Assembly: GCA_049297675.1 (NCBI GenBank)
Contig: JBAQUS010000010.1
Span: 6,781-70,780, forward strand
DNA length: 64,000 nucleotides
Direction: 5' to 3'
Origin: Minisyncoccia bacterium
GTDB lineage: Bacteria; Patescibacteriota; Minisyncoccia; Phycocordibacterales; DATDWN01
The position numbers and the translations under genes were made by a program. Below are positions 22,685-64,000 of this stretch, in pieces. The notes under the pieces were generated by a model. That model searched no databases and had not been told where the DNA came from. It saw only the letters and a program-made list of their open reading frames with translations. How positions within the stretch are numbered: position 1 is the first letter of the stretch; each line of letters opens with the position of its first letter.

Positions 22685-22802
22685 TTTTATTGTTTATCCA
22701 CAACTAACCATAATAAATCAATTTACACAATTTTAGTGATAATATATAATTGAAAGTAGAAAATATCACCTTTCCGTTATATATTATAAATAATACAATT
22801 TT

Positions 22803-24230: not shown

Positions 24231-25712
24231 ATGAAAAAAATAACTAATGTATTTATGTCGATCATTTTGTCTGTTTTGGTGGCAATTCCATTCAATGTTT
24301 TTGCCTTTACTTCTGAGTGTACTGGTGGAACTATTACTAATGTCGGAGCAAATACAGTTCACACTTTTACATCGAGCGGAACTTTTGAATGTTCTAGTGC
24401 AGGAACAGGAAATGTAGATTATTTGGTTGTTGCAGGCGGTGGTGGAGGTGGTGGAGCAAACAGTGCTGGTGGTGGCGGTGCTGGTGGTGTGAGGATGGGT
24501 ACTTCACTCTCATTCTCGGGCAGTTCATCTGTAACAGTTGGTTCTGGAGGTACAGGTGGGGCTGACACTGGGGTAACTGGATCGAATGGTTCTGACTCGG
24601 TGTGGAATAGTATAATCTCAATTGGTGGCAGTGGAGGTGGTGGCAATACTGCCCCCTCAAACGCTGGGACTAATGGTGGTTCAGGCGGTGGAAATGCTGG
24701 ATTTGGTACTGGACTTGCTGGATCGGGAATAGTTGGTCAAGGTAATGATGGGGGTGTTGGTGCAGATAATCCTTTTCCTTCTGGTGGGGGTGGTGGAGCA
24801 GGTTCAACTGGACAAGCTGGGACGGGTTTTCAATCAGGGTCTGGAGGAGCTGGCATAGTTAGTTCAATTTCTGGTTCTGCTATTTACTATGGAGGCGGAG
24901 GTGGTGGAGGCTCTAGCTCACAAGGATCATTATATGGACTCGGTGGTATAGGTGGTGGTGGAAATGGAGGAGAATTGGGGAATCCAACGTTAGGTGTTGC
25001 CAATACTGGAGGGGGAGGTGGTGGTTCGGGTAGTGCTAACACTGTTGGAGCGTCAGGCGGTTCGGGTATTGTAATACTGAGTTATGTAACCCCGGTCTAT
25101 CTTCCACCAATAACTGGAACTGGAATAAATAATAGATTAGCAAAATTTTCATCAGCCACCACAATAACTAACTCCTTACTTTCCGATGATGGACTAAACA
25201 TATCTCTTACCTCTGGTAACTTATTTATCTCGAACGGTTCTTTATTTTCACAATTTATTAGTTTATTAGCTGACGGTTTGGGTTTAGATACTGATACTCC
25301 CAGACTTCTCTCTATTGGCTCTACAACCGCAACTTCAATAAATATTGGTAGGGCAAATGTTACAACTACAATATTTGGTACAACAAAAATATCAAATATT
25401 GGTACTGTCTCAAATTGTGTTTCAACAATCACTCCTGCTGTATGTGGTTCTGCTCCATCTGGAAGTGTAGCAATGTCAACTGGAGGTAGTACTTTAATAG
25501 TGAATACAACAGCAGTGACATCAGATAGTCAGATATTTGTAATAGAAGATGCATCACTTGGTGCAAGACTAGGTATTACTTGTAGTGGTGCAGGGGCAAA
25601 TAGAAGTTTTAGTATTAGTGCTAGAACGGCTAATACTAGTTACACTATTAAATCTAGTGGTAATATAACTGGTGCTAACAAAGCTTGTTTGAGTTATTTT
25701 ATAGTGAACTAA
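24231..25712 (+). CDS. Secreted glycine-rich domain protein (Gly_rich-like) with conserved C-terminal Ser/Thr-rich domain; paralog A
   Basis: A signal peptide (MKKITNVFMSIILSVLVAIPFNVFA) is followed by VDYLVVAGGGGGGG and long GGxGG tracts, then GSGIVILSY. The C-terminal roughly 190 aa are about 75-80% identical to the paralog at 52750-54213. Both end in CLSYFIVN. Confidence 0.75.
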   Translation: MKKITNVFMSIILSVLVAIPFNVFAFTSECTGGTITNVGANTVHTFTSSGTFECSSAGTGNVDYLVVAGGGGGGGANSAGGGGAGGVRMGTSLSFSGSSSVTVGSGGTGGADTGVTGSNGSDSVWNSIISIGGSGGGGNTAPSNAGTNGGSGGGNAGFGTGLAGSGIVGQGNDGGVGADNPFPSGGGGGAGSTGQAGTGFQSGSGGAGIVSSISGSAIYYGGGGGGGSSSQGSLYGLGGIGGGGNGGELGNPTLGVANTGGGGGGSGSANTVGASGGSGIVILSYVTPVYLPPITGTGINNRLAKFSSATTITNSLLSDDGLNISLTSGNLFISNGSLFSQFISLLADGLGLDTDTPRLLSIGSTTATSINIGRANVTTTIFGTTKISNIGTVSNCVSTITPAVCGSAPSGSVAMSTGGSTLIVNTTAVTSDSQIFVIEDASLGARLGITCSGAGANRSFSISARTANTSYTIKSSGNITGANKACLSYFIVN

Positions 25713-48459: not shown

Positions 48460-49529
48460 AAGTATTAGTAATTACTAAAACAGTAAAAAAAGATTCTGGT
48501 TGGGGACGGTATTCTAGCTCAGTTGTAGAGGAGTACAAGAATTTTGGTATTGATTATAGAGTTATAACAGAAGGGGAAGAGTTATTGCCCTTAAATTCCT
48601 TTTTTTTATTTATAAAAAATTGCCTAGGAGTTAGAAGGATTTCCAAAGAGTTTGATATTGTTCATGCCTTTGATGGTTGGCCGTATGGTGTTTATGCGTG
48701 GTTTTCAACAATAGGTACAAATAAGAAATTATTTATAAACGCCATCGGTACTTACTCTGTGGCACCACTGAATGATCTTTTCAAAGGTCTATTATTGAAG
48801 ATTGCATATAAAAATTCTAACGCGGTGTTCGCTATAAGTAATTTTTTGAAAGAAAAGATTTTGTCACTGGTTAGTCTTAAAAATATACATACAGTTTATT
48901 TGGCTTCATCGGATTTTCCTCATCTATCACAACTGGAAATAGATGGATATAAATCTCGTTTTGGTATTTCAGGAGTGAGCCCGATTATATTAACGGTCGG
49001 TGAGATAAAGGATAGAAAGGGTCAGTACGAAGTGGTGGAGGCAATTGAGATTTTAAAAAATAAATATCCCAATATACTGTATATTATGGTTGGTTCGATC
49101 GAGAGAAATAAAGGTTATACAGGAGAGATAAATAATTTTATTCTAAAAAAATCGCTTCAGAAAAACATAAAGATAGTTTCTGATGCAAAAAACGATTCAG
49201 ATCTGGTATTTTTCTACAATATAGCGGATGTGTTTGTGCTCAATGCCAAGAAAAATGATAGACACTTTGAGGGATTTGGTATTGTCATGCTTGAAGCCGC
49301 AAGTTTTGGAAAGGCAGTAATTGGTGTATCTGGTACTGCACTTGAAGAAACCATGAAAGATGGATTAAACGGCTTACTAATAAGAGACCAGAGCAAAGAG
49401 GGTATAAGTGAAACAATGAAAAAAGTTCTAGTGAATAAAGACAAATATGCTTCCAACTCTATTAATTTTAGAAATAACTTTTCTTGGAAGAAAACAGCTT
49501 CTGAGTATGTTAAGTATTATGAAAAATAA
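48456..49529 (+). CDS. Glycosyltransferase family 1 (GT4-type)
   Basis: Carries the signature EGFGIVMLEAASFGKAVIGVSGTALEETMKDGLNGLL. The start was moved to the ATG at 48456, which overlaps the upstream stop (ATGA). Confidence 0.8.
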   Translation: MKVLVITKTVKKDSGWGRYSSSVVEEYKNFGIDYRVITEGEELLPLNSFFLFIKNCLGVRRISKEFDIVHAFDGWPYGVYAWFSTIGTNKKLFINAIGTYSVAPLNDLFKGLLLKIAYKNSNAVFAISNFLKEKILSLVSLKNIHTVYLASSDFPHLSQLEIDGYKSRFGISGVSPIILTVGEIKDRKGQYEVVEAIEILKNKYPNILYIMVGSIERNKGYTGEINNFILKKSLQKNIKIVSDAKNDSDLVFFYNIADVFVLNAKKNDRHFEGFGIVMLEAASFGKAVIGVSGTALEETMKDGLNGLLIRDQSKEGISETMKKVLVNKDKYASNSINFRNNFSWKKTASEYVKYYEK

Positions 49530-50994
49530 TTTATACAAACACATAGATCATCTATCTTTTTTTATGGATAACAGAGAGAGAAAGTTATACATTTTTACTA
49601 TAGCAATTAGGGTAGTGTTTTTGATATTTGTGCTTTTTAGTTTTGGAGACAGGGGTTTAGTTATGATGGGGGATTCACCAGACTATCTTGTTCTTGCTCA
49701 AAAAATTGTTACAACTAATTCTATGATATCTGGAGGAGAAGGTTACGAGGATATATATGAAACAACAAGACTCCCAGGATTTCCTCTATTTTTGAGTGTT
49801 TTAGTTTTTTTCCAAATTCCTTTTTTTATTGGATCGTTAGTCCAGATACTTATTACTTCCTCCATTCCAATAATCATAATGCGTTTGGGTAAATATTGCG
49901 GACTCGACGGAAAAATAACTTTTCTAACAGGAATATTGTGTGCTTTTGAGCCTTCTGGAATAGTTTATGGCACTATGCTTTTACCAGATGCTTTCAATGC
50001 TTGGATGTTTATAGTTGCATTTTCTTATTTAGTCTATTTTATTAAGGAGACTAATTCTAAGTATCTTTATGCTTCAGCAGTTTTGTTTTCTATAATGAAT
50101 TATATACGTCCCTCAGGTTTGTTTTTAGGCATTATTCTTCCAGTTTGTCTGGTGTTGTATTCTCTTTTCCTTGAACGAGAGAAATTTAAGTCATACTTAA
50201 AAAATGCAATTGTTTTCGGGTTTATATTTTTTGCTATTCTTCTACCATGGATGACTCGTAACTATATACATTATAGGGTGTTCAGTTTTGCCTCTGGGAT
50301 AGAAAGACAAATTTATGAAATTACTGCCGTGGGAGTAAGAGCCTCATTTGAAAAGGTGTCTCAGGCGGAAATGCTTCAGAAAATGAGAGGAGAAATACTT
50401 CCTAAGCTTATTGAAAAAAGAGATCTTGCCAATTTCAGAAATAATGGAATATTACTTTCTCCAGCTTTAGATATAATTATTTCACACCCAGTCCAATACT
50501 TAAAACTCTACGTAATGTCTCTAGTTACTTTTTTTGCTTCTGGGAATTATCACTATATTGGTTCAGTTTTTCACCTGTTTGACAATTCAGAGATTTCAAC
50601 ATCTTACACAATGATTTATGCAACACAGGGAATTATACCAATGATAAAAGCTTTGTTTATGAGTGTTATGCGTCCCTACGGTGCCACAATCATATTTGGT
50701 AGGATATTGTGGGTGTTACTAGCGGTATTTACTATTATCGGGATGTTTATAGAAAGAAAAAATAAAGAAATTAGACCAATCACTATCTTTTTTTTATGTA
50801 TATGTATTTATATGGTCATCGTCATTTCTCATATAACTGTCGGTATTGAAGCGCGTCATCGTCTGTTTATTAATCCTTTTTATTATTTATTTACCGCTAT
50901 TTCCGTTCATGCTATGATTGCTCTATTAAAAAAATCTAAATATGTCAAAGCTATTTCCCAACAAAAAGATAGTAGTGGTACTTCCGGCGTATAA
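49519..50994 (+). CDS. GT-C fold membrane glycosyltransferase (PMT/ArnT GT39/GT83-like)
   Basis: Polytopic. The first loop ETTRLPGFPLFLS resembles the RLPsal motif of the PMT/ArnT family. The start is uncertain (ATG 49507 or 49519; the track gives 49447). Confidence 0.5.
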   Translation: MKNNLYKHIDHLSFFMDNRERKLYIFTIAIRVVFLIFVLFSFGDRGLVMMGDSPDYLVLAQKIVTTNSMISGGEGYEDIYETTRLPGFPLFLSVLVFFQIPFFIGSLVQILITSSIPIIIMRLGKYCGLDGKITFLTGILCAFEPSGIVYGTMLLPDAFNAWMFIVAFSYLVYFIKETNSKYLYASAVLFSIMNYIRPSGLFLGIILPVCLVLYSLFLEREKFKSYLKNAIVFGFIFFAILLPWMTRNYIHYRVFSFASGIERQIYEITAVGVRASFEKVSQAEMLQKMRGEILPKLIEKRDLANFRNNGILLSPALDIIISHPVQYLKLYVMSLVTFFASGNYHYIGSVFHLFDNSEISTSYTMIYATQGIIPMIKALFMSVMRPYGATIIFGRILWVLLAVFTIIGMFIERKNKEIRPITIFFLCICIYMVIVISHITVGIEARHRLFINPFYYLFTAISVHAMIALLKKSKYVKAISQQKDSSGTSGV

Positions 50995-52567
50995 TGCAGA
51001 AAAGACTCTCAAAAAGACTTTTGACACAATACCTAAGGATTATATTGACGACATAATATTGGTTGACGATTGTTCTAAAGATAATACAGTTTCGTATTCT
51101 CGATCACTTGGGATCAAGACTTTTAGACATGATATAAATCTTGGTTATGGAGGCAATCAGAAAACATGTTACAGAGAAGCAATAAAGCTTGGAGCAGATA
51201 TAGTCGTTATGGTTCATCCAGATTTTCAGTATAATCCGGTTTATATTCCAGATATGATTAAACCGATTGCAGAAGGTAAAGCCGAAGCTGTTTTCGGTTC
51301 AAGAATGATTATAAAAGGTGGGGCAAGAAAAGGAGGTATGCCACTATGGAAGTATATAGCTAATATAACTCTTACAAAGATTGCAAATTTATTTTTGTGG
51401 CTAAACTTGAGTGAATATCATTCTGGTTTTAGGGCTTATAGTAAAAAAGCTCTAGAGACGATGCCTATTCAAACAAACTCAAACAATTTTGTTTTTGATG
51501 CTCAAATTATCGCCCAATTAAAGCAATTCAATTTAAATATCGCAGAAGTTCCTATTACCACGAAATATTTCCCAGGTGCCTCAATGATAGGTTTTTGGAA
51601 GAGTGTTGAGTACGGAATATCTATTCTTCTGGTACTTTCATTATATATTCTTCACAATATAGGATTAAGAAAATATAGAATTCTGTTGCCACCCGTTAAA
51701 TCTAAGTGTAGAATTTGTGATTCTGAGACAGCCCAGCTGATTTATAAAGAAAGCGAAGATTGGAACAATTCAAATAACAAGTTCAAATCCTATCGCATAA
51801 CTGACAGTATTCGATCGCATGGAAAGATTTTGAAATGTGTAAAGTGTGATTTAATTTATGTATCAGTTGATTCATCTCCTGATGTAGCAAAAATATATTC
51901 TGAGCAAGTAATTGATGATGAATATATAAAGGAAGAATTTGGCAGAAGAAAGCAATATAAAAAAATTGTTTCATTTTTAAAAAGCATTGGTTCATTTGGT
52001 GAGTTGGTCGATATAGGTTCTGGTCCAGGTTTCTTTTTAGATGAAGCTAAAAAAGCTGGGTTTAAGGTCTCCGGAATTGAGTCCGGGAAAGTTTGGGTAA
52101 ATTATGCTAAGGAAAAATTAAGACTAACCCAAGTCAGTCTAGGTAGTTTCGAAGATTTAACAAAATACCCAGATAATTATTTTTCTGTTATTACGGCGTG
52201 GGATGTTATTGAACATGTTGATTCGCCCAAGTTTTTTATGGAATTAATACACAAGAAATTAAAAGTTGGAGGAATTTTTGCACTATCAACCCCGATTATT
52301 GATAGTTTAGCATCACGTGTTTTAGGAGAGAGGTGGCATGCTGTTATTCCTTCTCACTTGACTTACTTTACCAGGAGCACATTACTCAATAATCTAAAGG
52401 ATGTCGGATTTGTTGTAAAGAGAACAAAGTTTTACACTAGATTTTTTTCTTTGCAATATTTATTCAACCGATTATTTAAAAAGACCAAGGACAGTTTTAT
52501 GAGAAAAATTGTGGTTCCAGTATCCCTGTTTGATGAAATAGAATTATATGTTATAAAAAAACATTAA
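50942..52567 (+). CDS. Bifunctional GT2 glycosyltransferase fused to C-terminal Zn-ribbon class I SAM methyltransferase
   Basis: The N-terminal half reads VVLPAYNAEKTL...VDDCSKDNT...VHPD (GT2). A C-terminal TM segment follows. Then come CRICDSE...CVKCDL (Zn ribbon) and LVDIGSGPGFFLDEAKKAGFKVSGIESG (SAM motif I). Confidence 0.7.
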   Translation: MSKLFPNKKIVVVLPAYNAEKTLKKTFDTIPKDYIDDIILVDDCSKDNTVSYSRSLGIKTFRHDINLGYGGNQKTCYREAIKLGADIVVMVHPDFQYNPVYIPDMIKPIAEGKAEAVFGSRMIIKGGARKGGMPLWKYIANITLTKIANLFLWLNLSEYHSGFRAYSKKALETMPIQTNSNNFVFDAQIIAQLKQFNLNIAEVPITTKYFPGASMIGFWKSVEYGISILLVLSLYILHNIGLRKYRILLPPVKSKCRICDSETAQLIYKESEDWNNSNNKFKSYRITDSIRSHGKILKCVKCDLIYVSVDSSPDVAKIYSEQVIDDEYIKEEFGRRKQYKKIVSFLKSIGSFGELVDIGSGPGFFLDEAKKAGFKVSGIESGKVWVNYAKEKLRLTQVSLGSFEDLTKYPDNYFSVITAWDVIEHVDSPKFFMELIHKKLKVGGIFALSTPIIDSLASRVLGERWHAVIPSHLTYFTRSTLLNNLKDVGFVVKRTKFYTRFFSLQYLFNRLFKKTKDSFMRKIVVPVSLFDEIELYVIKKH

Positions 52568-52749: not shown

Positions 52750-54213
52750 ATGAAAAAAATAACCAGCTTATTAACATCATTATTTTTATCAATCTTACTT
52801 CTTTTCCCAATAAATAGTGCAAATGCATTTATCTCTGATTGTAGCGGGGGTAGCGTAACTCATGCTGGAGGAAAAACTATACATACTTTTAATTCAAGCG
52901 ATATATTAGATTGTACTGGAACAAGTGGTGGGGCAGTTGATTATCTAATTGTTGGAGGGGGTGGGGGAGGATCTTATCAAGATAGTGGTGCCGGCGGAGG
53001 TGCCGGCGGAGTATTGGTGGGTAATGATTACGTATTAAATGCACAATCTTATTCAGTTGTTGTGGGTGGTGGGGGTGCTATATTTTCAAAAGGAAACGAC
53101 TCTGTCTTTGATGGAATGACTGCTTACGGAGGGGGTACTCCAGTTACAGGTGGTACTGGCGACGCTATTGGTGGTTCTGGAGCTGGTGGGGGTGGCGGTG
53201 ATATTCCTGGTGCAGGAATATCTGGTCAGGGACATTCAGGTGGTTATGGACACACTGGTAGTGGCGGTGCGTGTTCTGGTGATCCCTATTCTACTGGTGG
53301 AGGTGGTGGGGCAAGTTCGATTGGGGTTGCAGGGACATCTTCTGGTTCAGGTAATGGTGGCGATGGTATAATGAGTTCAATATCTGGATCAAATTCATAT
53401 TATGGCGGAGGAGGTGGCGGAGGAGCTGAAATTTTTAGGCAATGTAGCGGGGGAAATGGGACAGGTGGTTTGGGTGGTGGCGGTAATGGTGGAACTGCTC
53501 CAAATGGTGACACAGGTTCGACTGCAGGAAGCGTAAATACAGGTGGAGGTGGTGGGAATTTTCGTTCAGGAGGTTCAGGTGTAGTAATAATAAGTTATCC
53601 TTCACTTCCAACAATAATAGGCTTGGGTGTAACAAATAGATTAGCAAAGTTCTCAACGACTAATACTATAGCTAGTTCTCTCTTCTCTGATGATGGATTA
53701 AACATCACTCTAACTTCTGGAAATTTATTTATCTCAGGAGGATCATTATTTACACAATTTATTAATATACTAGCAGATGGTCTAGGTTTAGATACAAGTA
53801 CAGCAGGACTTCTTTCCATCGGCTCTACTACTGCGACTTCAATTAATATAGGCAGATCAGGTGTAACCACAACGATACTTGGGAAGACAAAATTATCAAA
53901 TATTGGCACAATCTCAAATTGTAACTCCGTAGCTTCTCCAGCGGTATGTGGATCTGCACCGTCAGGTAGTGTTACAATGTCTAAAGGTGGCAGTACTTTA
54001 ATAGTGAATACAACATCTGTAACTCCTGATAGCCAGATATTTATCATTGAAGACTCATCACTTGGTGTAAGATTGGGAATTACCTGTAACACCGCTACAA
54101 ATCGTACTTATACAATAAGTGCAAGAGTACCTAGTACAAGCTTTACAATAAAATCAAGTAACAATGTGAATGGTGCAAACAATGCATGTCTAAGTTACTT
54201 TATTGTGAATTAA
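52750..54213 (+). CDS. Secreted glycine-rich domain protein (Gly_rich-like) with conserved C-terminal Ser/Thr-rich domain; paralog B
   Basis: A signal peptide (MKKITSLLTSLFLSILLLFPINSANA) is followed by VDYLIVGGGGGGS, GGxGG tracts and GSGVVIISY. The C-terminal domain is shared with the paralog at 24231..25712 and ends CLSYFIVN. Confidence 0.75.
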   Translation: MKKITSLLTSLFLSILLLFPINSANAFISDCSGGSVTHAGGKTIHTFNSSDILDCTGTSGGAVDYLIVGGGGGGSYQDSGAGGGAGGVLVGNDYVLNAQSYSVVVGGGGAIFSKGNDSVFDGMTAYGGGTPVTGGTGDAIGGSGAGGGGGDIPGAGISGQGHSGGYGHTGSGGACSGDPYSTGGGGGASSIGVAGTSSGSGNGGDGIMSSISGSNSYYGGGGGGGAEIFRQCSGGNGTGGLGGGGNGGTAPNGDTGSTAGSVNTGGGGGNFRSGGSGVVIISYPSLPTIIGLGVTNRLAKFSTTNTIASSLFSDDGLNITLTSGNLFISGGSLFTQFINILADGLGLDTSTAGLLSIGSTTATSINIGRSGVTTTILGKTKLSNIGTISNCNSVASPAVCGSAPSGSVTMSKGGSTLIVNTTSVTPDSQIFIIEDSSLGVRLGITCNTATNRTYTISARVPSTSFTIKSSNNVNGANNACLSYFIVN

Positions 54214-54222
54214 TAGTTATTA

Positions 54223-55458
54223 ATGAAAATTGTTATTTTATCAGATGGTTTTCCTCCACTTGCCTTGGGTGGCGCGGAAGTCATTGCTAGAAATTTAGCA
54301 AAGGCTTTAGCGGAAAGAGGTCATGAGGTTTCGGTTATAACTTCTACAAAAGATATAAATGATGCAGGAAAGTTTACGGACGGAAAAATAAATATATACA
54401 AAATATATAGTGATTATTCTGATAGGTGGAGAGCTTACAGGAGTTTGTACAATTCAGGGGTTGTTCATAAGGTAGAGTCGATTTTGTCAAAAATAAAACC
54501 TGATATTGTTCATATTCATAATATTCATAAGCATCTGTCATATGCTTGCATTAATGTGGCAAAAAAATACTCGAGAGGGATTGTATTGACTGCACATGAT
54601 CTTATGCTTGTACATTACGGGAAATTAGGTGCACATGTAGGCAAAAACAATGAGGTTGAAGTGGACAAAATAAGTTTTTTGAGTCAAATAATGCAATACA
54701 AATTTAGATATAATCCATTTAGGAATTTTGTAATACGGTACTATCTTCGCAAAGTAGATAAGATTTTTGCTGTTAGTAGTGCATTGAAGAATATCTTAGA
54801 AAGAGAGGGTATCTCCGGAATAGAAGTTTTACATAACGGTATTAAGGTTTCGGATTGGATTATTGATAAAAGTAAATTAATTGATTTTAAAAATAAATAC
54901 GAACTCTCTGACAAAAAAGTTCTTTTTTTTGGTGGTCGTTTAACTGGGATAAAAGGGGGTATCGTTGCACTTCAAGTATTGGAAAAAGTGTTATCAAAAA
55001 TCGATAATGCAGTTTTGATTGTTGTAGGTCACAAGGATGATTGGGGGAAAGAGATGTTGGAGAAAACAAAAGATATGAGAATAGATAGAAAAGTCATCTT
55101 TACAGGGTGGATTCCCCATGAAGATATCCGTTATGCTTACGCTTCTTCGGATGTGGTGCTAGTTTTATCTAGGTATCTAGATCCATTTCCTACAATAAAT
55201 CTTGAGGCTATGGCTACAAGCAAAGCTGTAGTTGGTACAATTTTAGGTGGTACTCCAGAGGCAGTATTAGATAACAAGACAGGGTATATAGTTGATCCAA
55301 ATAATATTGAGTTGGTAAGTGAAAAAGTGTTAGATTTGCTGAGTGACATTGATAAATTAAAATCATTTGGACTTTCAGGTTTCAAGAGAGTTTCAAATAT
55401 TAATAACGAAGAGATTTGGGTAGATAAAACTATTTTATGCTATACTTCAGTACTTTAG
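54223..55458 (+). CDS. Glycosyltransferase family 1 (GT4-type)
   Basis: The N-terminus is MKIVILSDGFPPLALGGAEVIARNLAKALAERGHEV. The C-terminal region carries the GT1 E..A...PVV-type motif. Confidence 0.75.
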   Translation: MKIVILSDGFPPLALGGAEVIARNLAKALAERGHEVSVITSTKDINDAGKFTDGKINIYKIYSDYSDRWRAYRSLYNSGVVHKVESILSKIKPDIVHIHNIHKHLSYACINVAKKYSRGIVLTAHDLMLVHYGKLGAHVGKNNEVEVDKISFLSQIMQYKFRYNPFRNFVIRYYLRKVDKIFAVSSALKNILEREGISGIEVLHNGIKVSDWIIDKSKLIDFKNKYELSDKKVLFFGGRLTGIKGGIVALQVLEKVLSKIDNAVLIVVGHKDDWGKEMLEKTKDMRIDRKVIFTGWIPHEDIRYAYASSDVVLVLSRYLDPFPTINLEAMATSKAVVGTILGGTPEAVLDNKTGYIVDPNNIELVSEKVLDLLSDIDKLKSFGLSGFKRVSNINNEEIWVDKTILCYTSVL

Positions 55459-55468
55459 AGTAAATCTC

Positions 55469-56185
55469 ATGGCAAATGAAAGTACTATAGATTACTACGA
55501 TAATCAAAGCGGTCAATACTCCCAGAAACGTTACGAAGGGAAGACAGAGACTTATTTTCAATTTCTCTTTAAGAGAAGAAGGCAGATTTTTTTGGGTTTT
55601 ATAGCTAGTCTTGGTGATTTTAAGGATTTTAGACTATTTGAAATTGGTTGTGCTGATGGTGTTTTAATAAAAAAAATATTACAGAAAATGCCAAACAGTT
55701 TTAGTAAAATAGTTGGCATAGACATTTCTCCAAAAATGTTGGAGAAGGCGAGAGCTACTACGGCAGACTCGAGGGTCAGTTACTTTTTGAGAGGTGAAGA
55801 AGATTTTTCAATAAAATATAACCTTGTTCTTGAGGTGGGTGTACACGTCTCAGATCTTTTAACTGAGGTAAAATTTGTAAGTAACAAACTTTCTGTTGGT
55901 GGCTATTTTATATATTCTACTGCAGGCAAGAATTCCCTCCATGCAAGAATAAAACTAAGAGATAAGGATTATGCCAAAGAATATATAACTTATTTTAAAT
56001 GTGAAGAAATCTTAAACAGATATTTTGAGATAATCTCATCCCAAGGCTATGGTCTTTTCATTCCCAAACTTTGGGCGGTTCCGGCTTTGGCAAGAGTGGT
56101 CCAGCCGATTGCCGAAGCTTTATTTCGAAAAATACTTCCAAATCTATTTCATGAAAAAATTTATCTTCTAAGAAAGAAAAACTAG
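55469..56185 (+). CDS. Class I SAM-dependent methyltransferase
   Basis: Motif I is LFEIGCADGVLIKKIL, followed by IVGIDISPKMLEKA. Confidence 0.7.
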   Translation: MANESTIDYYDNQSGQYSQKRYEGKTETYFQFLFKRRRQIFLGFIASLGDFKDFRLFEIGCADGVLIKKILQKMPNSFSKIVGIDISPKMLEKARATTADSRVSYFLRGEEDFSIKYNLVLEVGVHVSDLLTEVKFVSNKLSVGGYFIYSTAGKNSLHARIKLRDKDYAKEYITYFKCEEILNRYFEIISSQGYGLFIPKLWAVPALARVVQPIAEALFRKILPNLFHEKIYLLRKKN

Positions 56186-56190
56186 GAAAG

Positions 56191-56309
56191 TCCCGTTAGA
56201 AATCACTCGGTTATATTTAGAGAAAAAATGTATATTTAAAAAATCAGTGACTTTATATATATTATTCACCTAAACTACGGAAACAATAGGTTTCCTATCT
56301 CTAACGGGA
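56191..56309. repeat. MITE-like palindromic element, family 1 copy c (diverged interior)
   Basis: Has the terminal IRs tcccgttagaaatc and gatctctaacggga, matching the termini of the copies at 4877 and 13555. The interior is unrelated. The right terminus encodes the last codons and the stop (…LSR*) of the minus-strand Wzx gene. Confidence 0.55.
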
Positions 56310-57569
56310 TAGATCCTCCTTGTGTGTCGCGAAGAAGTAGTAGTTTACTAAAAGCATGATGAGCCAAGAGATGCCGTTTTCTATGACTGCACCTTTTAGT
56401 CCGAAATTGTAAATAAGCACAAAAGTTAGGGCAATAGTTATCAGGTTGCTAATTGTAGTTAGTTTGTACATTGTCTTTGCGTCTTTCTTTATCTGGAAAT
56501 AGATGCCAAAGAGTGATATGCCAGGAATAGCTATGAGTCCGAGCATGTAGATCTGTGAGTAAATAACTGCCTCGGTGTATTTGGGAAAGAAAAGCTCAAA
56601 GACAAATGGAGCTAAGACAATGTACACGGCAACAATGACAATTGTTATTAATGTAAGTTGCCATGTTTTCTTCATGATGCTACTTCGGAGGTTCGCTTCA
56701 TCCAACACAGCATATTTTGGAAGAGCAATGTTAAAGAGATTTTTATAGCTACCTTTTATTTGTTCAGGTATTGCTTGTGAAAAGGCATATATTGCCAAGT
56801 TAGCCGCACCAAGATAATGAAAGACTAAAATTTTGTCTAGCTGGTTTGCTAAACTGTTAAAGAAATTCATAAAGCTGACATGTTTGCCGTAAGAAAGGAA
56901 AGAATCATCTGTTTCCGTGTTGGGACGATATTTTGAGATTACATGAAAATAAGACCATGTGGCTGATCCCGCACTCAAAACAAAATATACTGCAACTAGA
57001 GATAAGACACTCTCAGAGAAAAGGGCTATAGCGATTATCCCCATGTTTAGAAGAAGTTGAGAAAAAATCCAGTAAACTGTGCTCAGCTTAAAATTTTTCT
57101 TTCCTGAAAAATATGTGCCGTATAATCCATATGAGTTTATAATCGGTAAGCAAACTGAAGCTATGGCAAAAGAAAATCCAAGAACTTTGTTTCCATTTAG
57201 AAGATAGTAGATAGACATACTTAAACCTACTAAAACCATAATAAAGCTCCATTTAAATGATAGAGAAACGGTTTTTCTAAGCATTCCTTCTTTTCCCTTA
57301 GCAATTGCTTGAGTTAATACGTTCGGCATTCCCGTTAAGGAAAGTGTTCCGAGGATGCCAATTGCTGAGAGTATAAATTTATACTGACCGTAAAAATCTT
57401 TTGAAACAAAGTTTGCAAAAAAGACAGACAGTCCGAATGCCATTACCACGGCTGAAATTTGCCCTACAGTCATCCAGAAACCACTTTTCGCAACATAAGC
57501 CATGTCGGTTTCGAAATAGTTTCCTAGCCAGTTTATGGCGTAGAGCCTCTTATCTTTGAGCTTTTGCAT
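56301..57569 (-). CDS. Wzx-like oligosaccharide/polysaccharide flippase (MOP superfamily, Polysacc_synt)
   Basis: 422 aa with about 12 TM helices. The N-terminal KSGFWMTVGQISAVVMAFGLSVFFANFVSKDFYGQYKFILSAIGILG is typical of Wzx. Confidence 0.65.
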   Translation of the reverse strand: MQKLKDKRLYAINWLGNYFETDMAYVAKSGFWMTVGQISAVVMAFGLSVFFANFVSKDFYGQYKFILSAIGILGTLSLTGMPNVLTQAIAKGKEGMLRKTVSLSFKWSFIMVLVGLSMSIYYLLNGNKVLGFSFAIASVCLPIINSYGLYGTYFSGKKNFKLSTVYWIFSQLLLNMGIIAIALFSESVLSLVAVYFVLSAGSATWSYFHVISKYRPNTETDDSFLSYGKHVSFMNFFNSLANQLDKILVFHYLGAANLAIYAFSQAIPEQIKGSYKNLFNIALPKYAVLDEANLRSSIMKKTWQLTLITIVIVAVYIVLAPFVFELFFPKYTEAVIYSQIYMLGLIAIPGISLFGIYFQIKKDAKTMYKLTTISNLITIALTFVLIYNFGLKGAVIENGISWLIMLLVNYYFFATHKEDLSR

Positions 57570-57610
57570 GGCGTCATATTACTTTATTTTTCATCTATTT
57601 GCCAACGCGA

Positions 57611-57780
57611 ATTATAAAACTCGACGAAAATACATGTTTTCTGGCGTATCTCGGAGAGCGTGAAGCTCAAGAGTTAAGGAAAATTTTCAGCCCGCCCGTA
57701 CCCGAACGGTACGTTCGGGCGGGCAGAAAATTATTCCGGCGCCAGAAAATATGTGTTGAGTAAGAGTTTTGTAGTTCGCG
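57611..57780. repeat. MITE-like palindromic element, family 2 copy B, carrying a 34-bp G+C-rich perfect-palindrome insertion
   Basis: The copy is co-linear with 43064-43199. An extra gcccgcccgtacccgaacggtacgttcgggcgggc lies at about 57690-57724. Its nested perfect stems are gcccgcccg/cgggcgggc and cccgaacg/cgttcggg with loop gta. The G+C content there is strikingly above the local level. Confidence 0.65.
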
Positions 57781-57806
57781 ATTTACTAGCTTGTGGGAAT
57801 ACCATT

Positions 57807-57815
57807 TGCTATACT
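57807..57815 (+). promoter_or_regulatory. Candidate extended -10 promoter element (TGCTATACT) giving a leaderless transcript for the ligase-like gene
   Basis: tgctatact at 57807-57815 has a TGn-TATACT architecture. The ATG at 57822 lies 7 nt downstream, and there is no Shine-Dalgarno. Confidence 0.3.
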
Positions 57816-57821
57816 CGACCC

Positions 57822-59999
57822 ATGAAAAATACAAAAAAAATACTTGAATATTTAATTATAAGCGGTTTGTTTTTATTGCCATTTATTCCTTTTATTGTTC
57901 CATCAAATTTCTTTTTCCCTTTTATTACAGGCAAAGGTTTTGCTTTCAGAATTTTGGTAGAAATTTTGTTCGGGCTTTTTGTCATACTTTGCTTTGTAGA
58001 TAAAGAATATAGACCAAATTTTTCGTGGATTACTAAATCCGTTTTACTTTTCACTTTCGTTACTTTTGTCGCAGATATTTTTGGTGAGAATCCTTACAAA
58101 AGCATGTGGAGTAACTTCGAAAGAATGGAAGGATTTGTCCTCATAGCTCACCTCTGTCTTTTTTATCTGGTTATATCTTCATTTATTAAACAGAAGAAAA
58201 AATGGCATCAATATATTAACCTAACCATAGGAGCAAGTGTCCTCATGTCCGTCTATTCACTTTTTCAGCTAGCAGGTAAGTTAAACATAAATCAAGGAGG
58301 AGTTCGTGTTGATGCTACGTTTGGAAACGCCACATACATGGCTATTTACGTTGTTTTTCATATATTCTTGTCTCTTTATATGCTTACAGAGAAAGAGAGC
58401 AAGAAATGGCAAAAATGGACGTATGGTGGCATTATCCTTCTCGAAACCACCATACTCTATTTCACAGCAACTAGAGGGGCAATCTTGGGGTTAATAGGAG
58501 GTGTTCTCCTTACAGGACTTATTCTTCTTTTCAAAGATAGAGGTAACGCACATTTGAGAAAAATTTCTTATTCTATCTTGGGATTGGTAGTGGCTATTGT
58601 GCTCATTTTTATTTCTGTAAAAGATACAGGTTATGTAAAAACAAGTCCAGTTCTCTCGAGATTTTCCTCACTTAGTTTTTCTGAAATAAAAACTCAGGGC
58701 AGATATTTTGTTTGGCCAATGGCAGTAAAGGGGGTTATCGAGCGACCGATTTTGGGTTGGGGACAGGAGAATTTTAACTTTGTCTTTAATAAAAATTACG
58801 ATCCAAGAATGTGGAATCAAGAACAGTGGTTTGATAGGACTCACAATGTTTTTCTCGATTGGCTTATCGCTGGAGGTCTCTTAGGTTTTCTGTCTTATGC
58901 CAGTATGTATTTGGCGCTCTTCTACTATATCTGGAGAAAGAAAACCGATCTGACAGTTCTTGAGAGGAGTGTTCTGACAGGGATGATATCGGCATATATT
59001 TTCCACAATATATTCGTATTCGACAATCTCATAAGTTACATAATGTTCTTTACTGTCTTGGGTTATATTCATGCCATTTCTACCCATGACGAACCTCGGT
59101 ATCATAAATTCCATTCTCTAAATTTCTCACACGATACAGTAAACTATGTTGTCTTTCCCACTGTTCTGGTGGCTACGATCGGGATGATTTACTTTGTAAA
59201 TATTCCTGCTATTTCTGCAAATATTAATCTAATCAAAGCTTTAACCCCGAGTGGTAATTATGAAAAGAATCTTGAGCTATTTAAAAAAGCATACAGTTAT
59301 AACTCCTTAGCTGATTCAGAAATAACAGAGCAGATTGTGACATCGGCGATTCAAGCAATAGGTACCCAGGGTGTCGATAATAAAATTAAAAATGATTTTT
59401 ACAATCTCGCTAAAACCCAAATTGAGAAGAAAATAAATAAAGTCCCAAATGATGCAAGGTATCTCGTTTTCGCTGGGAGTTTTTTCAACAGAGTAGGGCA
59501 GTTTGATGAGGCAATAAAGTATCTGGATATGGCAGTTAAAGAATCACCTAGAAAGCAATCAATTTTATTTGAGCTCGGTTCTTCATACATAGGCAAAGGA
59601 GATTTACCAAAAATGTTTGAAATGTTTAAGAAAGCATACGAACTTGAACCAAGCTCAAACGAGGCTTTAGCTTTGTATGCAGTTGGGGCAATATATACTA
59701 AAAATATTGCCGTACTTAAAGAACTACAATCAAAAATAAGTACTGAAGACCTCATTAAAGACGATAGATTTTTGAGGGCATATAGTGAGATAGGGGATTA
59801 TCAAACAGTCCTGACAATACTAAATGCCAGACTAGAAAAGGATCCAAAGAATCCTCAAAATAATTTACTTCTTGCTTCCACTTATGCTTCGCTTGGTCAA
59901 AAACAAAAAGCAATAGAAATTATTCAAAAAATAATAAATGAAAATCCTAGCTTCAAAGCACAAGGGGAAGGGTATATAAAAGAGATCGAATCAAGATAG
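57822..59999 (+). CDS. O-antigen ligase-like (Wzy_C domain) polytopic membrane protein fused to C-terminal TPR repeats
   Basis: TRGAILGLIGGVLLTGL and FVWPMAVKGVIERPILGWGQENFNFVF match the Wzy_C/O-antigen ligase signature. The C-terminal roughly 250 aa form TPR-like repeats (YLDMAVKESPRKQSILFELGSSYIGKGDLPKMFEMFKKAYELEPSS...). The track starts at 57753 within the repeat element; the ATG at 57822 is preferred. Confidence 0.65.
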   Translation: MKNTKKILEYLIISGLFLLPFIPFIVPSNFFFPFITGKGFAFRILVEILFGLFVILCFVDKEYRPNFSWITKSVLLFTFVTFVADIFGENPYKSMWSNFERMEGFVLIAHLCLFYLVISSFIKQKKKWHQYINLTIGASVLMSVYSLFQLAGKLNINQGGVRVDATFGNATYMAIYVVFHIFLSLYMLTEKESKKWQKWTYGGIILLETTILYFTATRGAILGLIGGVLLTGLILLFKDRGNAHLRKISYSILGLVVAIVLIFISVKDTGYVKTSPVLSRFSSLSFSEIKTQGRYFVWPMAVKGVIERPILGWGQENFNFVFNKNYDPRMWNQEQWFDRTHNVFLDWLIAGGLLGFLSYASMYLALFYYIWRKKTDLTVLERSVLTGMISAYIFHNIFVFDNLISYIMFFTVLGYIHAISTHDEPRYHKFHSLNFSHDTVNYVVFPTVLVATIGMIYFVNIPAISANINLIKALTPSGNYEKNLELFKKAYSYNSLADSEITEQIVTSAIQAIGTQGVDNKIKNDFYNLAKTQIEKKINKVPNDARYLVFAGSFFNRVGQFDEAIKYLDMAVKESPRKQSILFELGSSYIGKGDLPKMFEMFKKAYELEPSSNEALALYAVGAIYTKNIAVLKELQSKISTEDLIKDDRFLRAYSEIGDYQTVLTILNARLEKDPKNPQNNLLLASTYASLGQKQKAIEIIQKIINENPSFKAQGEGYIKEIESR

Positions 60000-61296
60000 T
60001 TTAGGGAAATAGTTTTCAACCAAAAGACGCAGATGGGCGTCTTTTGATTTGCTCAAATTGTTTGCACGACTGACCATTTAGGTCTATTGAAATTAATTAC
60101 TTATGTGTTGTAACTTTTTCTGTTCTCAGACAATAATATTAAAATTTATACAGAAGCATAAAATAAATCTGGGCAAATATTCAGAAAATGAAAACAACTT
60201 TTATCTACCATCTGCAGATATTTAATGGACAGATAAAAATTACAAATAAATATATGATCTACAGCTCAAGAATAAACATTAATAGATAATTAAAAATATG
60301 GCTAATAATAGTAAGTAAATTATATCTTATATTGATGTACAGAAATCCTACAATGGACAAATTAAAGTCAACAATGCTGAATACTCTCATCAATTTAAAT
60401 GTACAGAGTGATAATTAGGTAAGTCACATTGCATAGTACACAATTATAGAGCCAAAAAATTGAAAATTCAGTCGAAACCACAAAGCAAAATTCAGGTTCG
60501 AAATATTGAAACATATATTAACTCGCAGTCACTGCATTTGGTAGCAGAAGTAACATTCAGACTCAGAGAAATTGCTAAAACATTGAACTCGTCTAAACGA
60601 TATTTACCTTAATATATGAATATTACTGCAAATTAGTAATTTCATGACATATGTCAAAACTAGGAATATAAATGCATTATGTATTAATAAAGTACTAACC
60701 TGGTCTGATCTCTTAATTGATTCATTACAAGTTAATGGAAGATATTGTTTGTCATAAGCAATGAACTTAGAAGAAAGAATGTATGCGGGTAGGATGCCCG
60801 ATAATAAGTAGTTAGTGTCATAATAGGCTAGTAACTAGTAGTGTGTAGTTTCATCATCCCTCCTGAGGAGAACAGACTAATACATACAATAAACTGCATG
60901 GTTATAAATTAGTGAACGAAACTATACGAACAGGCGTGAGCTCCTTTGAACGAAGATGCTCATAACAACATATTACTCACTTAGGCAAAACAAACATATA
61001 TAAACATTGATAAAGATATATAAGTCTGCATGAAAATTTATATATGATTAATAATATTTAGTATGGAAAACTAGAATTACAGTTTTAATATTAGAGTTTT
61101 GTGATACATATTATTTTCTGACTATAGGTAACTCTATAGTTTTGGACTCTTCTCTAATTTAATTTTCTCTTTATTCTTTTGAAATAATTTTTTTATGAGG
61201 GCATTTTTAATCAATCTCGGATTAACAATAAATCCTTATTTATCCACACTTTTCTTCGATATTTTGGTGACTCGTTGTCAATTAAATCGTATAATA

Positions 61297-64000
61297 TTTT
61301 CAATGTCGCCAGATCTATTTTTTGAAAATAAAAAGTTCATAACTTCAAAGCAGGCGAGTAAGTTGACAGGCTACTCAAAAGATTACATCGGTCAGCTTTC
61401 TAGAAGTCAGAAAATTGAGTCACGAAGAATCGGACATACTTGGTATGTTTGTGAGGAGTCACTTTTGAACTATAAAAATTCTCCAACGGATTATGACTTC
61501 TCAAAAAATTTTTTGGGTAAGGAATTACTTAGTAGTGAGAAAGCTGAAGTTTTAAGTTTACCTGAAAATGCTACAAAGGAGGAGGTCAGTCAAGTAATCA
61601 ATGATGACATAAGTAGTTTTGTTAAATCTGTATCGTTAGGAAAATCTCACACTTCCATTTTTGAAAAGCATAATAATCATACATCTCTTTCTGAAGTTCA
61701 GAAGGTTAGAAAAACTGTTGATAATAAATCCCCTTACTTTGGAGAAATCTCAAAATATATTTTCCATCGTGGTGTTCCAGTTTTTGTTTCATTAGTTTTA
61801 TTTTTAGCTTTTGTTTTATCTGGAGCAAATTTTTCAAACATCAGAAGTTCTATGTTGGCTTCTGTTGCCACAACAACAGGCGATCTAAATTTGGTTGATG
61901 AGTCTGGAGTAGTTGTTTATCATGAAGTTAACGATTGGTTTTATTTTAATATTTACGAACCAGTTGCGGAACTTCTAAATAGAAGAATAATCGAGGTCAA
62001 TAATGTTTACATCGCAAAAAATCTGCCAGCAGTTTCGACAACTACAAATCGAATAATTCTTGCACAAGGGAATCCTGCACCTGTTGCTCCTAGAGTTGTA
62101 AACACAACAAACGTTGTTGAAAGAATATATGAGAGAGAAGTTCCATCTGATTTTTCAAAAGATTATTTGGAGTTGAGATTACAGGAATTAAATAACAAAA
62201 TTCAATCACAGCTTTCACAACTTTCAACCGGCAGTGGTGGAAATGTTACAAACATTTATCGTGAAATTGCTCAGAGTCAGAGGATCGATCAGCTCTCTGG
62301 AACTCAAATCAACAACCCAATAATTACAGGCGGATCAATAACTAACACTTCGATTAATGCTAGTAGTCTAAATGCCACAAGTCTTTCGGTTTCTGGCAGT
62401 GTTACTTTAGGTACGACAACAGTTACAAATCTCATAGTTACAAACACCTCGACCTCGACATTCTCTGGTGGAATTTCAGTAACTGGTGGATGTGTCTCTG
62501 TAAATGGAACCTGCCTTGGTACCGGATCTAGTGGAGGTGTATCTACTGGTGGAACATTCTCAACCACAACCTCTACAGTAGCCGGAATACTTGTGAACTA
62601 CTCAAATAACTCTACAGATATACTTGCAATTGGAGGAAATTCCACATCTTCATCAAAATTCTTTTATGATCCAAACTCACTAACCGGTTATCTTGCTGGT
62701 TCCTTAGGCATAGGCACTACCTCTCCTTATACTTCTCTAGGTGTAGCTGGCACAGTAGTAGCTAACAACTTTCTAGCTACCTCTACAACAGCTACCTCAA
62801 CCTTTTCAGGCGGTGTCTCAATCAATTCTCTTGCTGTAACTGGCACGATCTCTTCCTCAACTTTTGCAAATGGTATCAACCTAACAACTGGTTGTTTTGC
62901 AGTAAATGGAGTCTGTCTTGGAAATTCATCACCACTAACTTTTACATATCCTCTAACAAATTCTTCAAACGTAATCTCTTTAGCTTTCGGAACAACAACA
63001 GCAAACAGTTGGTCAGCCCTTCAAACATTTGCATACTCATCATCAACTGCTTACTCATCCTTCACAACTGCTTCAACAACAAATCTTTTTGCAGGAACAC
63101 TATCACTTCCAAACATCACACAAGGTTTTGCTTACTTTGGAACAAATGGAATCGTAAACTCTGTCGCTAGTTCATCCATCCGTCTCTCATGGTTTAACAA
63201 CGATAGCAACTTCCTATCATCATACGATGCATTCACACATCCACTTGCAGGTCAATCTGCAACAACATCTCTAGTATTATTTTACGGTCAAGCATCCTCC
63301 ACACAACTATCCGCTAACGTAGCTTACTTTGGAGGTACAGCCACAACCACAATCTCTCAGAACGGTAACCTAACAACTCAACAAGCTACAACAACAAATC
63401 TAGCTATCACAAACATTCTCTCCACTCTCCTCAAAACAAATGCACAAGGTTCAGTTATCCCAGCCATAGCTGGAACAGATTATCTTGCATCAACCTTCGC
63501 TTTCCCATTCACCACGAATGCTAACTACAACTCCACCTCAACAGTCATCGGATTCTCTGGCGGTCTCTTCTCCACAGCTTCATCAACATTTAACTCATCT
63601 CTCTTCTTATCAAATCTAACACAAGGTTACTCCTTCATCGGTTCAAACGGTCTAGTACAAACAGTATCTACATCAACACTAGCAGGACAAGTATTTCCTT
63701 TCACTAACAATGTTGGTTACAACTCTACATCAACTACACTAGGTCTACTCAATGGATTCTTCTCAACAGCCTCATCAACAATATCTGGAACATTTAACCT
63801 ACCAACACTCACTACAGGAGGCTTAGCAGTAAACCCTGCAGGACAAGTCTACAGCTATTCAACATCAACGTGGACTTTTGCATCATCTACCCTCCTATCC
63901 GACACTAACTTCTGGAGTGGAGTAAATAGATTCGCTTTCTCATCAACCACATACGGATCATTCACAACAGCTTCTACAACAAATCTTTTTGCAGGAACAC
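61297..64000 (+). CDS. 3'-truncated giant surface protein: N-terminal HTH (excisionase/MerR-like) domain + single TM helix + >650-aa Ser/Thr-rich repetitive extracellular region
   Basis: Frame 1 is open from the ATG at 61297 to the window end. It is not in the ORF track because no stop lies within the window. The HTH is KKFITSKQASKLTGYSKDYIGQLSRSQKIESRRIGHTWYV. The TM helix is VPVFVSLVLFLAFVLSGA. The remainder is S/T-rich, with repeated FxTASxT...NLTQG[FY]x[FY]xG[ST]NG[IL]V units. A 40-nt near-identical DNA repeat at 63061 and 63961 shows an approximately 300-aa period. Confidence 0.7.

Follow-up and report, generated by a model that had tools for sequence, protein, structure and literature searches.

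Introduction

Two known kinds of protein, membrane-tethered helix-turn-helix (HTH) proteins and trimeric fibre adhesins, appear to be combined in the predicted product of a single gene at the end of a 64,000-nucleotide (nt) stretch of DNA from a Minisyncoccia bacterium (assembly GCA_049297675.1, contig JBAQUS010000010.1, positions 6,781 to 70,780 of the forward strand; hereafter the window). The protein, for which database entries offer generic names only, has an N-terminal HTH domain, a single transmembrane (TM) helix and a long Ser/Thr-rich ectodomain, and is a “long” paralogue of a type II (N-in) single-pass membrane family that is almost confined to Patescibacteria among the loci retrieved. 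We read it as an adhesive fibre whose anchor is a DNA-binding module tethered to the membrane, and put the probability of this reading at about 0.5; it draws on the observed order of the domains, their fold, the topology bias, the size and synteny of the family and the conservation of its promoter, and takes in a putative trimer as well as putative glycosylation, adhesion, DNA binding and DnaA control.

For the fibre, the nearest described systems are the mosaic adhesive trimers (MATs) of Bdellovibrio bacteriovorus (for example Bd2133, Bd3182 and Bd2439), trimeric surface fibres for prey recognition and handling. One of them recognises particular glycans on the prey surface, about 60% have a Peptidase_S74 (S74) domain at the end, and their N-terminal domain is invariable and presumed to bind an element of the predator surface (PMC10769870). 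Like the ectodomain examined here, MATs are large surface fibres with a mosaic build from beta-helix modules of the type GxxGIGTxxP...L.V, many of them with a self-cleaving S74 domain and others with varied tips; Bdellovibrio lives on other bacteria. In contrast to the HTH-linker-TM N-terminus found here, MATs have no TM helix and no cytoplasmic HTH, judging from the description in the MAT paper (PMC10769870), and the Bdellovibrio phylum is unrelated to Patescibacteria, whose envelope is reportedly not Gram-negative (PMC6744442). Phage tail fibres and endosialidases (T5 pb1, K1F) resemble two relatives of the window protein, P0130 and P0134, in which S74 likewise ends a long Ser/Thr/Gly-rich fibre, whereas the family proteins are cellular, membrane-anchored and chromosomally syntenic. 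Gram-positive serine-rich repeat adhesins such as Fap1 and GspB are defined by a long N-terminal signal peptide, SxSx repeats and an LPXTG anchor; the window protein has the HTH in place of an N-terminal signal and contains no SxSx dipeptide repeats, while its C-terminus lies beyond the sequence read.

The N-terminal domain has the same small winged HTH (wHTH) fold as TraN of pIP501, AM32 of pAMbeta1, the excisionases RdfS and Xis, and BldC, and TraN consists of two tandem copies, as do the short forms of the family. TraN/AM32, the excisionases and BldC are soluble and cytoplasmic, whereas the family HTH is membrane-tethered and bears its own signature (GY-x-x-DY[IV]GQL-x-R). ToxR, CadC and TcpP share with the family a cytoplasmic N-terminal DNA-binding domain, a single TM helix and an extracytoplasmic C-terminal part, but they carry an OmpR/PhoB-type HTH and a compact sensor of ~100–250 amino acids (aa) where the family has an excisionase-type HTH and either a tiny tail or a fibre of >1000 aa. 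RodZ also consists of an HTH, a linker, a single TM helix and an outside region, with a tethered HTH that binds a protein (MreB); its XRE-type HTH and DUF4115 profiles were both absent from the Pfam scan of the window protein. In RacA- and Noc-type tethers, a DNA-binding protein keeps chromosomal DNA at the membrane, with a MerR-like wHTH in the case of RacA; they offer a functional analogy only, reaching the membrane via DivIVA or an amphipathic helix with no integral TM helix and no surface fibre. Since the defining features of the ToxR/CadC, RodZ and serine-rich-repeat adhesin families were looked for and not found, the window protein, judged by its sequence, is not a member of any of them, and modules of its fibre are also found in MAT and tail fibres, while its predicted N-terminal anchoring solution is a different one.

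A search of the literature on the architecture, the family and its promoter motifs, together with a census of protein families in the Candidate Phyla Radiation (CPR) (PMC6744442), found no description of this architecture. Supplementary Data 1 of the census lists an HTH_17 family, fam02572, of 767 proteins with a median length of 71 aa and no TM helix, present in 600 CPR and 22 non-CPR genomes (PMC6744442). As a 71-aa soluble protein without a TM helix it was rejected as the same family, and it may represent a related DNA-binding module.

Results

The gene and its extent

The long open reading frame (ORF) with HTH, TM and Ser/Thr-rich parts, first remarked on in a reading made from the window's sequence alone (the sequence-only reading), was confirmed as a real gene. 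Frame +1 stays open from 61183 as far as the window reaches (64000), with no stop codon, and alignment with eight relatives set the start codon at the ATG at 61303 (MSPDLFFENKK...), 6 nt later than the start at 61297 proposed in that reading. The coding sequence (CDS) of this long-form HTH-TM-fibre protein (61303..64000, + strand, as for all features of the gene and of its upstream DNA given below) covers the first 899 codons and runs beyond the window. An identical gene is present on the NCBI metagenome-assembled genome (MAG) contig JBAQRY010000017.1 (L002), the best of four contigs retrieved via the GT4 neighbour, which adds 288 aa; at 1187 aa the L002 copy is still without a stop at the contig end, so that the lack of a stop reported earlier was borne out for at least 1187 aa. 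An exact look-up of the Wzy neighbour for further contigs with the full gene returned none.

An excisionase-type HTH at the N-terminus

The first domain (aa 5–59, 61315..61479) is a predicted cytoplasmic winged HTH of excisionase type, as indicated by HTH_17, the AlphaFold2 fold and Foldseek. Pfam HTH_17 (PF12728) matched aa 13–59 with an E value of 6.1e-5 and 23.6 bits, for a gathering cut-off of 27, and TIGR01764 (“excise”) matched the window protein with an E value of 0.005. Relatives recovered with the N-domain profile clear the 27-bit HTH_17 cut-off, with 35.9 bits for P0134, 32.6 for P0130 and 30.9 for P0149. In an AlphaFold2 model built on a 21-sequence alignment, aa 1–60 have a predicted local distance difference test score (pLDDT) of ~95 and follow the order b-b-a-a-b-b-a, which is the excisionase topology. 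Foldseek matched the modelled domain to the RdfS excisionase, TraN of pIP501 and BldC (probability 0.98–0.99, root-mean-square deviation (rmsd) 1.9–3.0 Å over ~52 residues), with 28–31% identity and an rmsd of 1.9–2.5 Å for TraN, and to models of phage excisionase/HTH_17 proteins with E values from 3.6e-4 and a probability of 1.00; all high-probability fold matches were DNA-binding wHTH proteins. In a PDB sequence search with the HTH, AM32/TraN were the only matches of the same fold and were weak (E 0.04–0.3). The Pfam scores of the relatives, the modelled topology and the Foldseek matches together settle the assignment of the predicted fold, and the excisionase/MerR-like HTH that had been proposed for the N-terminus is upheld. 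The domain contains a near-invariant family signature, GY-x-x-DY[IV]GQL-x-R ... G-x-x-W, and retains R34, G44 and W47, which are canonical residues of the HTH_17 core and wing. Neither a second HTH copy nor a short-form gene is present in the window.

The domain might instead be, as in RodZ, a repurposed protein-interaction module, a possibility that the sequence-only reading also allowed; it would dock the fibre or its anchor to a conserved cytoplasmic partner such as the cytoskeleton, the divisome or the secretion machinery, with no part for DNA. The putative recognition helix is almost invariant over thousands of clusters, including its Asp, the net charge of the domain is modest, the flexible linker would suit a tether, and the order of HTH, linker, TM helix and outside part is, from general knowledge, that of RodZ. 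The near-invariant helix, the Asp and the mildly basic character of the domain keep a RodZ-like, protein-binding HTH a serious rival; we nevertheless consider it rather unlikely, as the high-probability fold matches are all DNA binders, R34, G44 and W47 of the HTH_17 core and wing are conserved, the family-specific cis-elements described below would still require a binding protein, and no conserved cytoskeletal gene neighbour was found among the loci.

Linker, TM helix and topology

Between the HTH and the TM helix lies a variable linker of ~90 aa (aa 60–148, 61480..61746), predicted to be cytoplasmic and disordered, with a low pLDDT of 42–59 and no conservation of length or sequence; the median distance from HTH to TM helix in the family is 108 aa. 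Charged residues (K+R+D+E) make up 19–28% of the N-terminal ~150 aa. The single TM helix (aa 149–175, core 157–175; 61747..61827) was assigned as a type II N-in anchor from hydropathy, AlphaFold2 and charge bias: the Kyte-Doolittle profile peaks at 2.33 at aa 157–175 with no comparable segment elsewhere in the 899 aa, and AlphaFold2 modelled a helix over aa 149–175 with a pLDDT of 78–95. This matches the soluble stretch of ~150 aa and the one hydrophobic helix described in the sequence-only reading. Exactly one TM segment follows the last HTH in 143 of the 150 best family representatives, and the 15-aa flanks of this segment, summed over the 143, hold 542 K+R on the N side vs 185 on the C side.

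A TM helix at aa 149–175 is too distant from the N-terminus for a cleaved signal peptide. The same Ser/Thr-rich ectodomain is found in many paralogues behind an ordinary N-terminal signal/anchor at aa 4–25, which identifies it, on sequence comparison, as an exported module. Together with the strong positive-inside bias, its export in the paralogues places the HTH on the cytoplasmic side of the membrane and everything past aa 176 on the exported side. Neither outcome that the sequence-only reading named as fatal to the HTH call, the lack of an HTH profile match or a cleaved signal anchor, was thus observed.

A modular fibre-like ectodomain

Outside the membrane, the predicted ectodomain starts with a juxtamembrane motif, GVVVYHEVNDWFYFNIYEPVAELL (aa 202–225, 61906..61977), which an iterated hidden Markov model (HMM) search recovered in 44 long-form relatives and did not detect in short forms; the idea that short-form tails are homologous to this motif was rejected for want of detectable homology. 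A helical “neck” (SKDYLELRLQELNNKIQSQLSQLS ... QSQRIDQL; aa 285–331, 62155..62295), kept in relatives, precedes the fibre and was modelled by AlphaFold2 as helices at aa 286–309 and 315–326 with a pLDDT of ~80. The remainder (aa 330–899 onward, 62290..64000) is a Ser/Thr-rich, nearly uncharged modular sequence that is taken as a fibre from its composition, its repeats, its 176 homologues and a profile match to MATs. S+T account for 30–39% and K+R+D+E for 0–4% of aa 301–899, and S+T for just 9% of aa 201–300. The composition gives ~570–600 aa of S/T-rich sequence in the window, less than the minimum of 650 aa stated in the sequence-only reading, though the L002 copy has at least 860 aa.

The STFSGG...GCxxVNGxCLG module was indeed found twice by repeat analysis, each time with a Cys-x6-Cys loop: module 1, STFSGGISVTGGCVSVNGTCLG (aa 385–406, 62455..62520; loop C397/C404), is conserved in the consensus of alignment A3, and module 2, STFSGG...GCFAVNGVCLG, covers aa 499–540 (62797..62922; loop C531/C538). 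Tandem units of ~300 aa had also been proposed, and one offset of 301 aa does exist (aa 543–599 vs 844–899, 46% identity), but the overall pattern is a mosaic of 60–110-aa modules with offsets of 64, 100, 139, 170, 301, 315, 405 and 485 aa, the best internal pair sharing 69% identity over 64 aa. No tandem repeat was found at the DNA level in the gene.

A search with aa 341–899 recovered 176 homologous proteins, several of them with Peptidase_S74 and some labelled “helix-turn-helix domain-containing protein, partial” or “mucin-like protein”; their named sources were Patescibacteria (Minisyncoccia, Paceibacteria, Parcubacteria), except for one Thermoleophilia. The complete plan of HTH, TM helix, fibre, S74 and C-terminal extras is present in the full-length HTH-bearing relatives P0130 (3878 aa, S74 at residues 3578–3635, named “tail fiber domain-containing protein” at NCBI) and P0134 (1699 aa, S74 at residues 1438–1491), and P0017 has S74 as well. 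A profile of aa 275–620 (A3, 22 sequences) matched the MAT structures 8OND, 8OJN and 8OL4 (Bd2133, Bd3182 and Bd2439) in the PDB with E values from 7.7e-5 to 0.26, the best two being Bd2133 8OND (7.7e-5) and Bd3182 8OJN (0.029). The alignment spans the repeated GxxGIGTxxP...L.V module, and the beta-helix signature GIGTTSPY (aa 469–476, 62707..62730), common to MAT fibres, aligns with Bd2133 and Bd3182. These sequence comparisons support the view of the ectodomain as a surface fibre. A Foldseek search with the AlphaFold2 monomer of the ectodomain gave non-significant matches only (P2 spike, E 0.8) and was discarded as uninformative.

A family at a housekeeping position

Scoring of 1.84 billion representatives (clustered at 50% identity) with a profile built on aa 1–85 gave 7353 matches at E ≤ 1e-3, of which 3928 reached E ≤ 1e-10 and 408 reached E ≤ 1e-30. 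The protein is atypical relative to model organisms, as had been proposed, and yet hardly an isolated oddity, given these 7353 related clusters and the members already labelled at NCBI as “helix-turn-helix domain-containing protein” or “tail fiber domain-containing protein”. Genome loci (80 in all) were gathered with one narrow peptide pattern, Y[ST]KDY[IV]GQ, and are therefore biased to close relatives of the window protein; 79 are labelled as Patescibacteria-type MAGs, the exception being a 2.6-kb contig labelled Nitrospira. The typical member, of ~320 aa, carries the HTH in two tandem copies; a linker of ~108 aa leads to its one TM helix, and the tail behind the helix is short (median 52 aa). 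Long forms are a minority that add fibres reaching 3878 aa. The family gene follows gatB in 67 of the 80 loci, and obg is also there in 58 (tyrS-obg-gatB-[family gene]). A two-paralogue order recurs downstream of tyrS-obg-gatB, and the long form there has one HTH, the TM helix and the fibre. In seven loci (L050, L051, L053, L054, L056, L060 and L048) a short form with two HTH copies, a TM helix and ~350 aa lies directly upstream of the long form. Many long forms end at contig ends, which explains the “partial” labels at NCBI.

Excisionase-type HTH domains are typical of phages, as is tail-fibre S74, and assemblies break within these genes, as seen from the loci at contig ends and the many “partial” NCBI members, so that the gene might be thought an artefact in which mis-assembly or mis-annotation fused a prophage tail-fibre gene to an excisionase gene. 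We regard this as very improbable: the ORF runs without a break through both parts and the TM helix that separates them, and is reproduced in the independent MAG contig L002, the same architecture recurs in dozens of genomes at the fixed tyrS-obg-gatB housekeeping position, tblastn and PHROG searches gave no phage match, and no phage genes lie near the family gene in the window.

The size distribution of the family also bears on the comparison with ToxR and CadC made in the sequence-only reading, under which the protein would be a one-component regulator whose ectodomain senses a surface or contact and alters DNA binding or triggers proteolytic release of the HTH. The order of parts (cytoplasmic HTH, one TM helix, outside domain) is the same, TraN as the closest solved relative is a DNA-binding protein, and a conserved operator-like palindrome lies beside the gene's own promoter (see below), as expected for an autoregulated factor. 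However, the HTH is not of OmpR type (a Pfam scan at E ≤ 10 gave HTH_17 and a spurious DMP12, with no Trans_reg_C), the ectodomain is a repetitive fibre common to signal-peptide paralogues and not a compact sensor, and no site-1/site-2 protease or signalling partner was found among the conserved neighbours. Most members have ~52 aa outside the membrane, and sensing by a big ectodomain cannot be the function of the family. The analogy therefore holds for the order of parts, and a ToxR/CadC-type regulator is an unlikely explanation. As the commonest members have almost nothing outside, the HTH-TM module must serve a purpose independent of a large ectodomain, presumably the tethering of DNA to the membrane or autoregulation; the family is built around this conserved module, to which the fibre is a secondary addition, and for this reason the protein is not read as a ToxR-like ligand sensor.

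A conserved promoter module

The sequences upstream of 81 family gene starts were compared with a control set of 425 further starts from these loci. In the window, an exact match to the DnaA-box consensus, TTATCCACA, lies 63 nt before the ATG (61240..61248) and is one of two exact copies in the 64 kb. A box of the TTATCCACA type was found at −72..−45 for 57 of the 81 family starts and for none of the 425 others, and its positions in the family, −53/−54 or −63/−64, are separated by one helical turn. Just upstream of the box, at −78/−68, the family has an operator-like palindrome, TCTCGG-N4-CCGAGA, at times doubled, which was found at 25/81 family starts compared with 3/425 controls; the density of TCTCG/CGAGA upstream is 1.38 per 130 nt for the family and 0.26 for control genes. 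The left arm of this palindrome survives in the window as ATCTCGGAT (61214..61222), its sole exact copy there. More distant loci have variants of the form CTCGG...CGAG or, directly next to the −10, an ATCTCG half-site, and the family consensus of the promoter fragment reads TCTCGGATAACCGAGA ... TTATCCACA.

The best promoter match within 59950–61400 is GTGACT, 17 nt, TATAAT (61267..61295; 10/12 match), with the −10 at 61290–61295. A −10-like hexamer at −16..−11, starting at −13, was found for 68 of the 81 family starts vs 53 of the 425 controls. As the −10 hexamer ends 7 nt from the ATG, the transcript is probably leaderless. The promoter that they share points to the window gene as the orthologue of the gene next to obg-gatB in other loci, although its location is new. 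The obvious protein to bind TTATCCACA would be DnaA, and for the palindrome the nearest candidate is the encoded HTH.

The promoter lies at the end of a 1.3-kb AT-rich spacer (60000–61302, ~30% GC) in an otherwise tightly packed window; no ORF of >50 aa, no pseudogene or neighbour-gene remnant and no Rfam family at threshold was found in it. It contains a conserved non-coding element, TATAAACATTGATAAAG (60999..61015), with a core, ATAAACATT[GA]ATAAA, that is invariant in 11 loci (alignment A5) and located 250–1200 nt upstream of family genes. Several loci have a reverse DnaA-box-like TGTGGATA 60–70 nt downstream of the TATAAACATTGATAAAG element. The spacer was not called as oriC, having one DnaA-type box and a cumulative GC skew that rises through the window to the gene. 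In the final 2 kb (62001–64000) the skew turns to −0.28; this flip lies over the Ser/Thr-rich coding region and probably reflects composition, not a replication landmark.

Related motifs were also seen elsewhere. The 730 kb of loci hold 79 exact boxes, for an estimated ~9 expected from base composition. In L005–L037, a reverse DnaA-box-like TGTGGATAA, a conserved CCATATTTGTACCAAATT and a TAGAGT at −13 occur ~65 nt upstream of obg. Palindromes of the TCTCGG-N4-CCGAGA type lie inside the family CDS at +213..+301 in L010, L020, L024, L028, L030 and L032–L034, and at +37 in L055, L059, L063, L066 and L074; such intragenic copies include the non-conserved linker region, and none is within the window gene. 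The other exact TTATCCACA of the window (22694–22702) precedes, by 109 nt, an unannotated ORF of 195 aa; an AbiEii toxin gene comes next (region 22803–24093), so that the ORF is probably an AbiEi-type antitoxin.

Genomic neighbourhood

In the window the family gene follows a glycan-synthesis island and the 1.3-kb spacer. The nearest upstream gene (57753..59999, + strand) encodes an O-antigen-ligase-like membrane protein with Wzy_C (Pfam E 9.6e-21) and TPR domains. The PglL/PilO O-oligosaccharyltransferases carry Wzy_C, and this likeness and the adjacency of the genes make the Wzy_C+TPR protein a candidate O-oligosaccharyltransferase for the fibre; the adjacency itself is missing from related loci. 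Glycosylation of the fibre is plausible from the neighbouring genes.

The envelope-glycan island (16585–18015, 48441–52567 and 54223–59999) encodes several glycosyltransferases of the GT1, GT2 and GT4 families, methyltransferases, a PMT_2 (protein mannosyltransferase-like) protein, a Wzx flippase and Wzy_C+TPR. Two proteins with a Gly_rich_2 domain (24231–25712 and 52750–54213, the second with a weak K1-lyase_C match) may be further fibre- or spike-like surface proteins of the glycan region. Farther away, the ORF at 1838–3661 has weak matches to TrwB_AAD_bind and T4SS-DNA_transf, domains of type IV secretion coupling proteins.

Discussion

Under the reading that we prefer, the protein would insert N-in and its ectodomain would fold from the C-terminal tip into a trimeric beta-helical fibre in the style of phage tail fibres or Bdellovibrio MATs. 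The fibre could be O-glycosylated through the adjacent glycan island, and would project outward to attach to the surfaces of hosts or partners. Beneath the membrane, the three HTH domains of each fibre, on flexible leashes, would then bind DNA, and may hold chromosomal DNA at the envelope, repress their own promoter via the TCTCG-type operator, or do both. Transcription would start at the leaderless promoter, whose DnaA-box-like site keeps to one face of the helix, and expression is for this reason probably tied to DnaA or replication status.

Several observations weigh against this adhesive fibre with a DNA-binding anchor. On the cytoplasmic side, the protein's own HTH_17 score is under the gathering cut-off, the putative recognition helix has a near-invariant Asp, the mean charge of the HTH domain is merely +1.6 and suits a conserved protein partner equally with DNA, and the binding of DNA by any family member is a prediction. 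The palindrome has lost its right arm in the window and is half-degenerate, a trimer is mismatched with a two-fold palindrome, and the gene stands outside the family's usual position in a window without obg and gatB. On the exported side, the C-terminus is missing here, so that S74 is known from relatives only and trimerisation is presumed; glycosylation and adhesion are likewise what we infer. The likeness to MATs is at profile level, with no match for the 1187-aa protein in a phmmer search of the PDB, and no match was obtained for the fibre by tblastn against 50,697 phage records, nor a fibre family for the window protein in PHROGs. The AlphaFold2 monomer of aa 275–620 is poor (pLDDT 61) apart from the neck at aa 286–326.

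A broader and speculative extension, to which we give a low probability, is that the HTH-TM module is a Patescibacteria-wide coupler of chromosome and envelope, with an HTH that would bind the family-specific TCTCG palindromes or TTATCCACA at its own locus and with expression timed by DnaA. If this were true, a particular site of the chromosome would be fixed at the inner side of the membrane, in long forms directly beneath a host-binding fibre, and one polypeptide would link surface attachment, chromosome position and replication status in ultra-small cells. These cells reportedly lack many informational and cell-biology proteins of other bacteria (PMC6744442).

We know of no fibre adhesin for which a DNA-binding-type domain at the inner end has been described. 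Patescibacteria are described as a large share of bacterial diversity, with all cultivated members attached to other microbes (PMC11623550). Little is understood of host recognition and of the organisation of such tiny cells in this group. With 7353 clusters, a mostly fixed housekeeping position in the 80 loci and a conserved promoter of its own, it is likely to be important to the organisms that carry it. Its long forms, for which the MAT adhesins of Bdellovibrio offer an analogy, are strong candidates for fibres that recognise hosts, and the promoter module, made up of the DnaA-box-like site, the palindrome and the leaderless −10, is a short, testable DNA target that may provide a first handle on cell-cycle-linked regulation in Patescibacteria.

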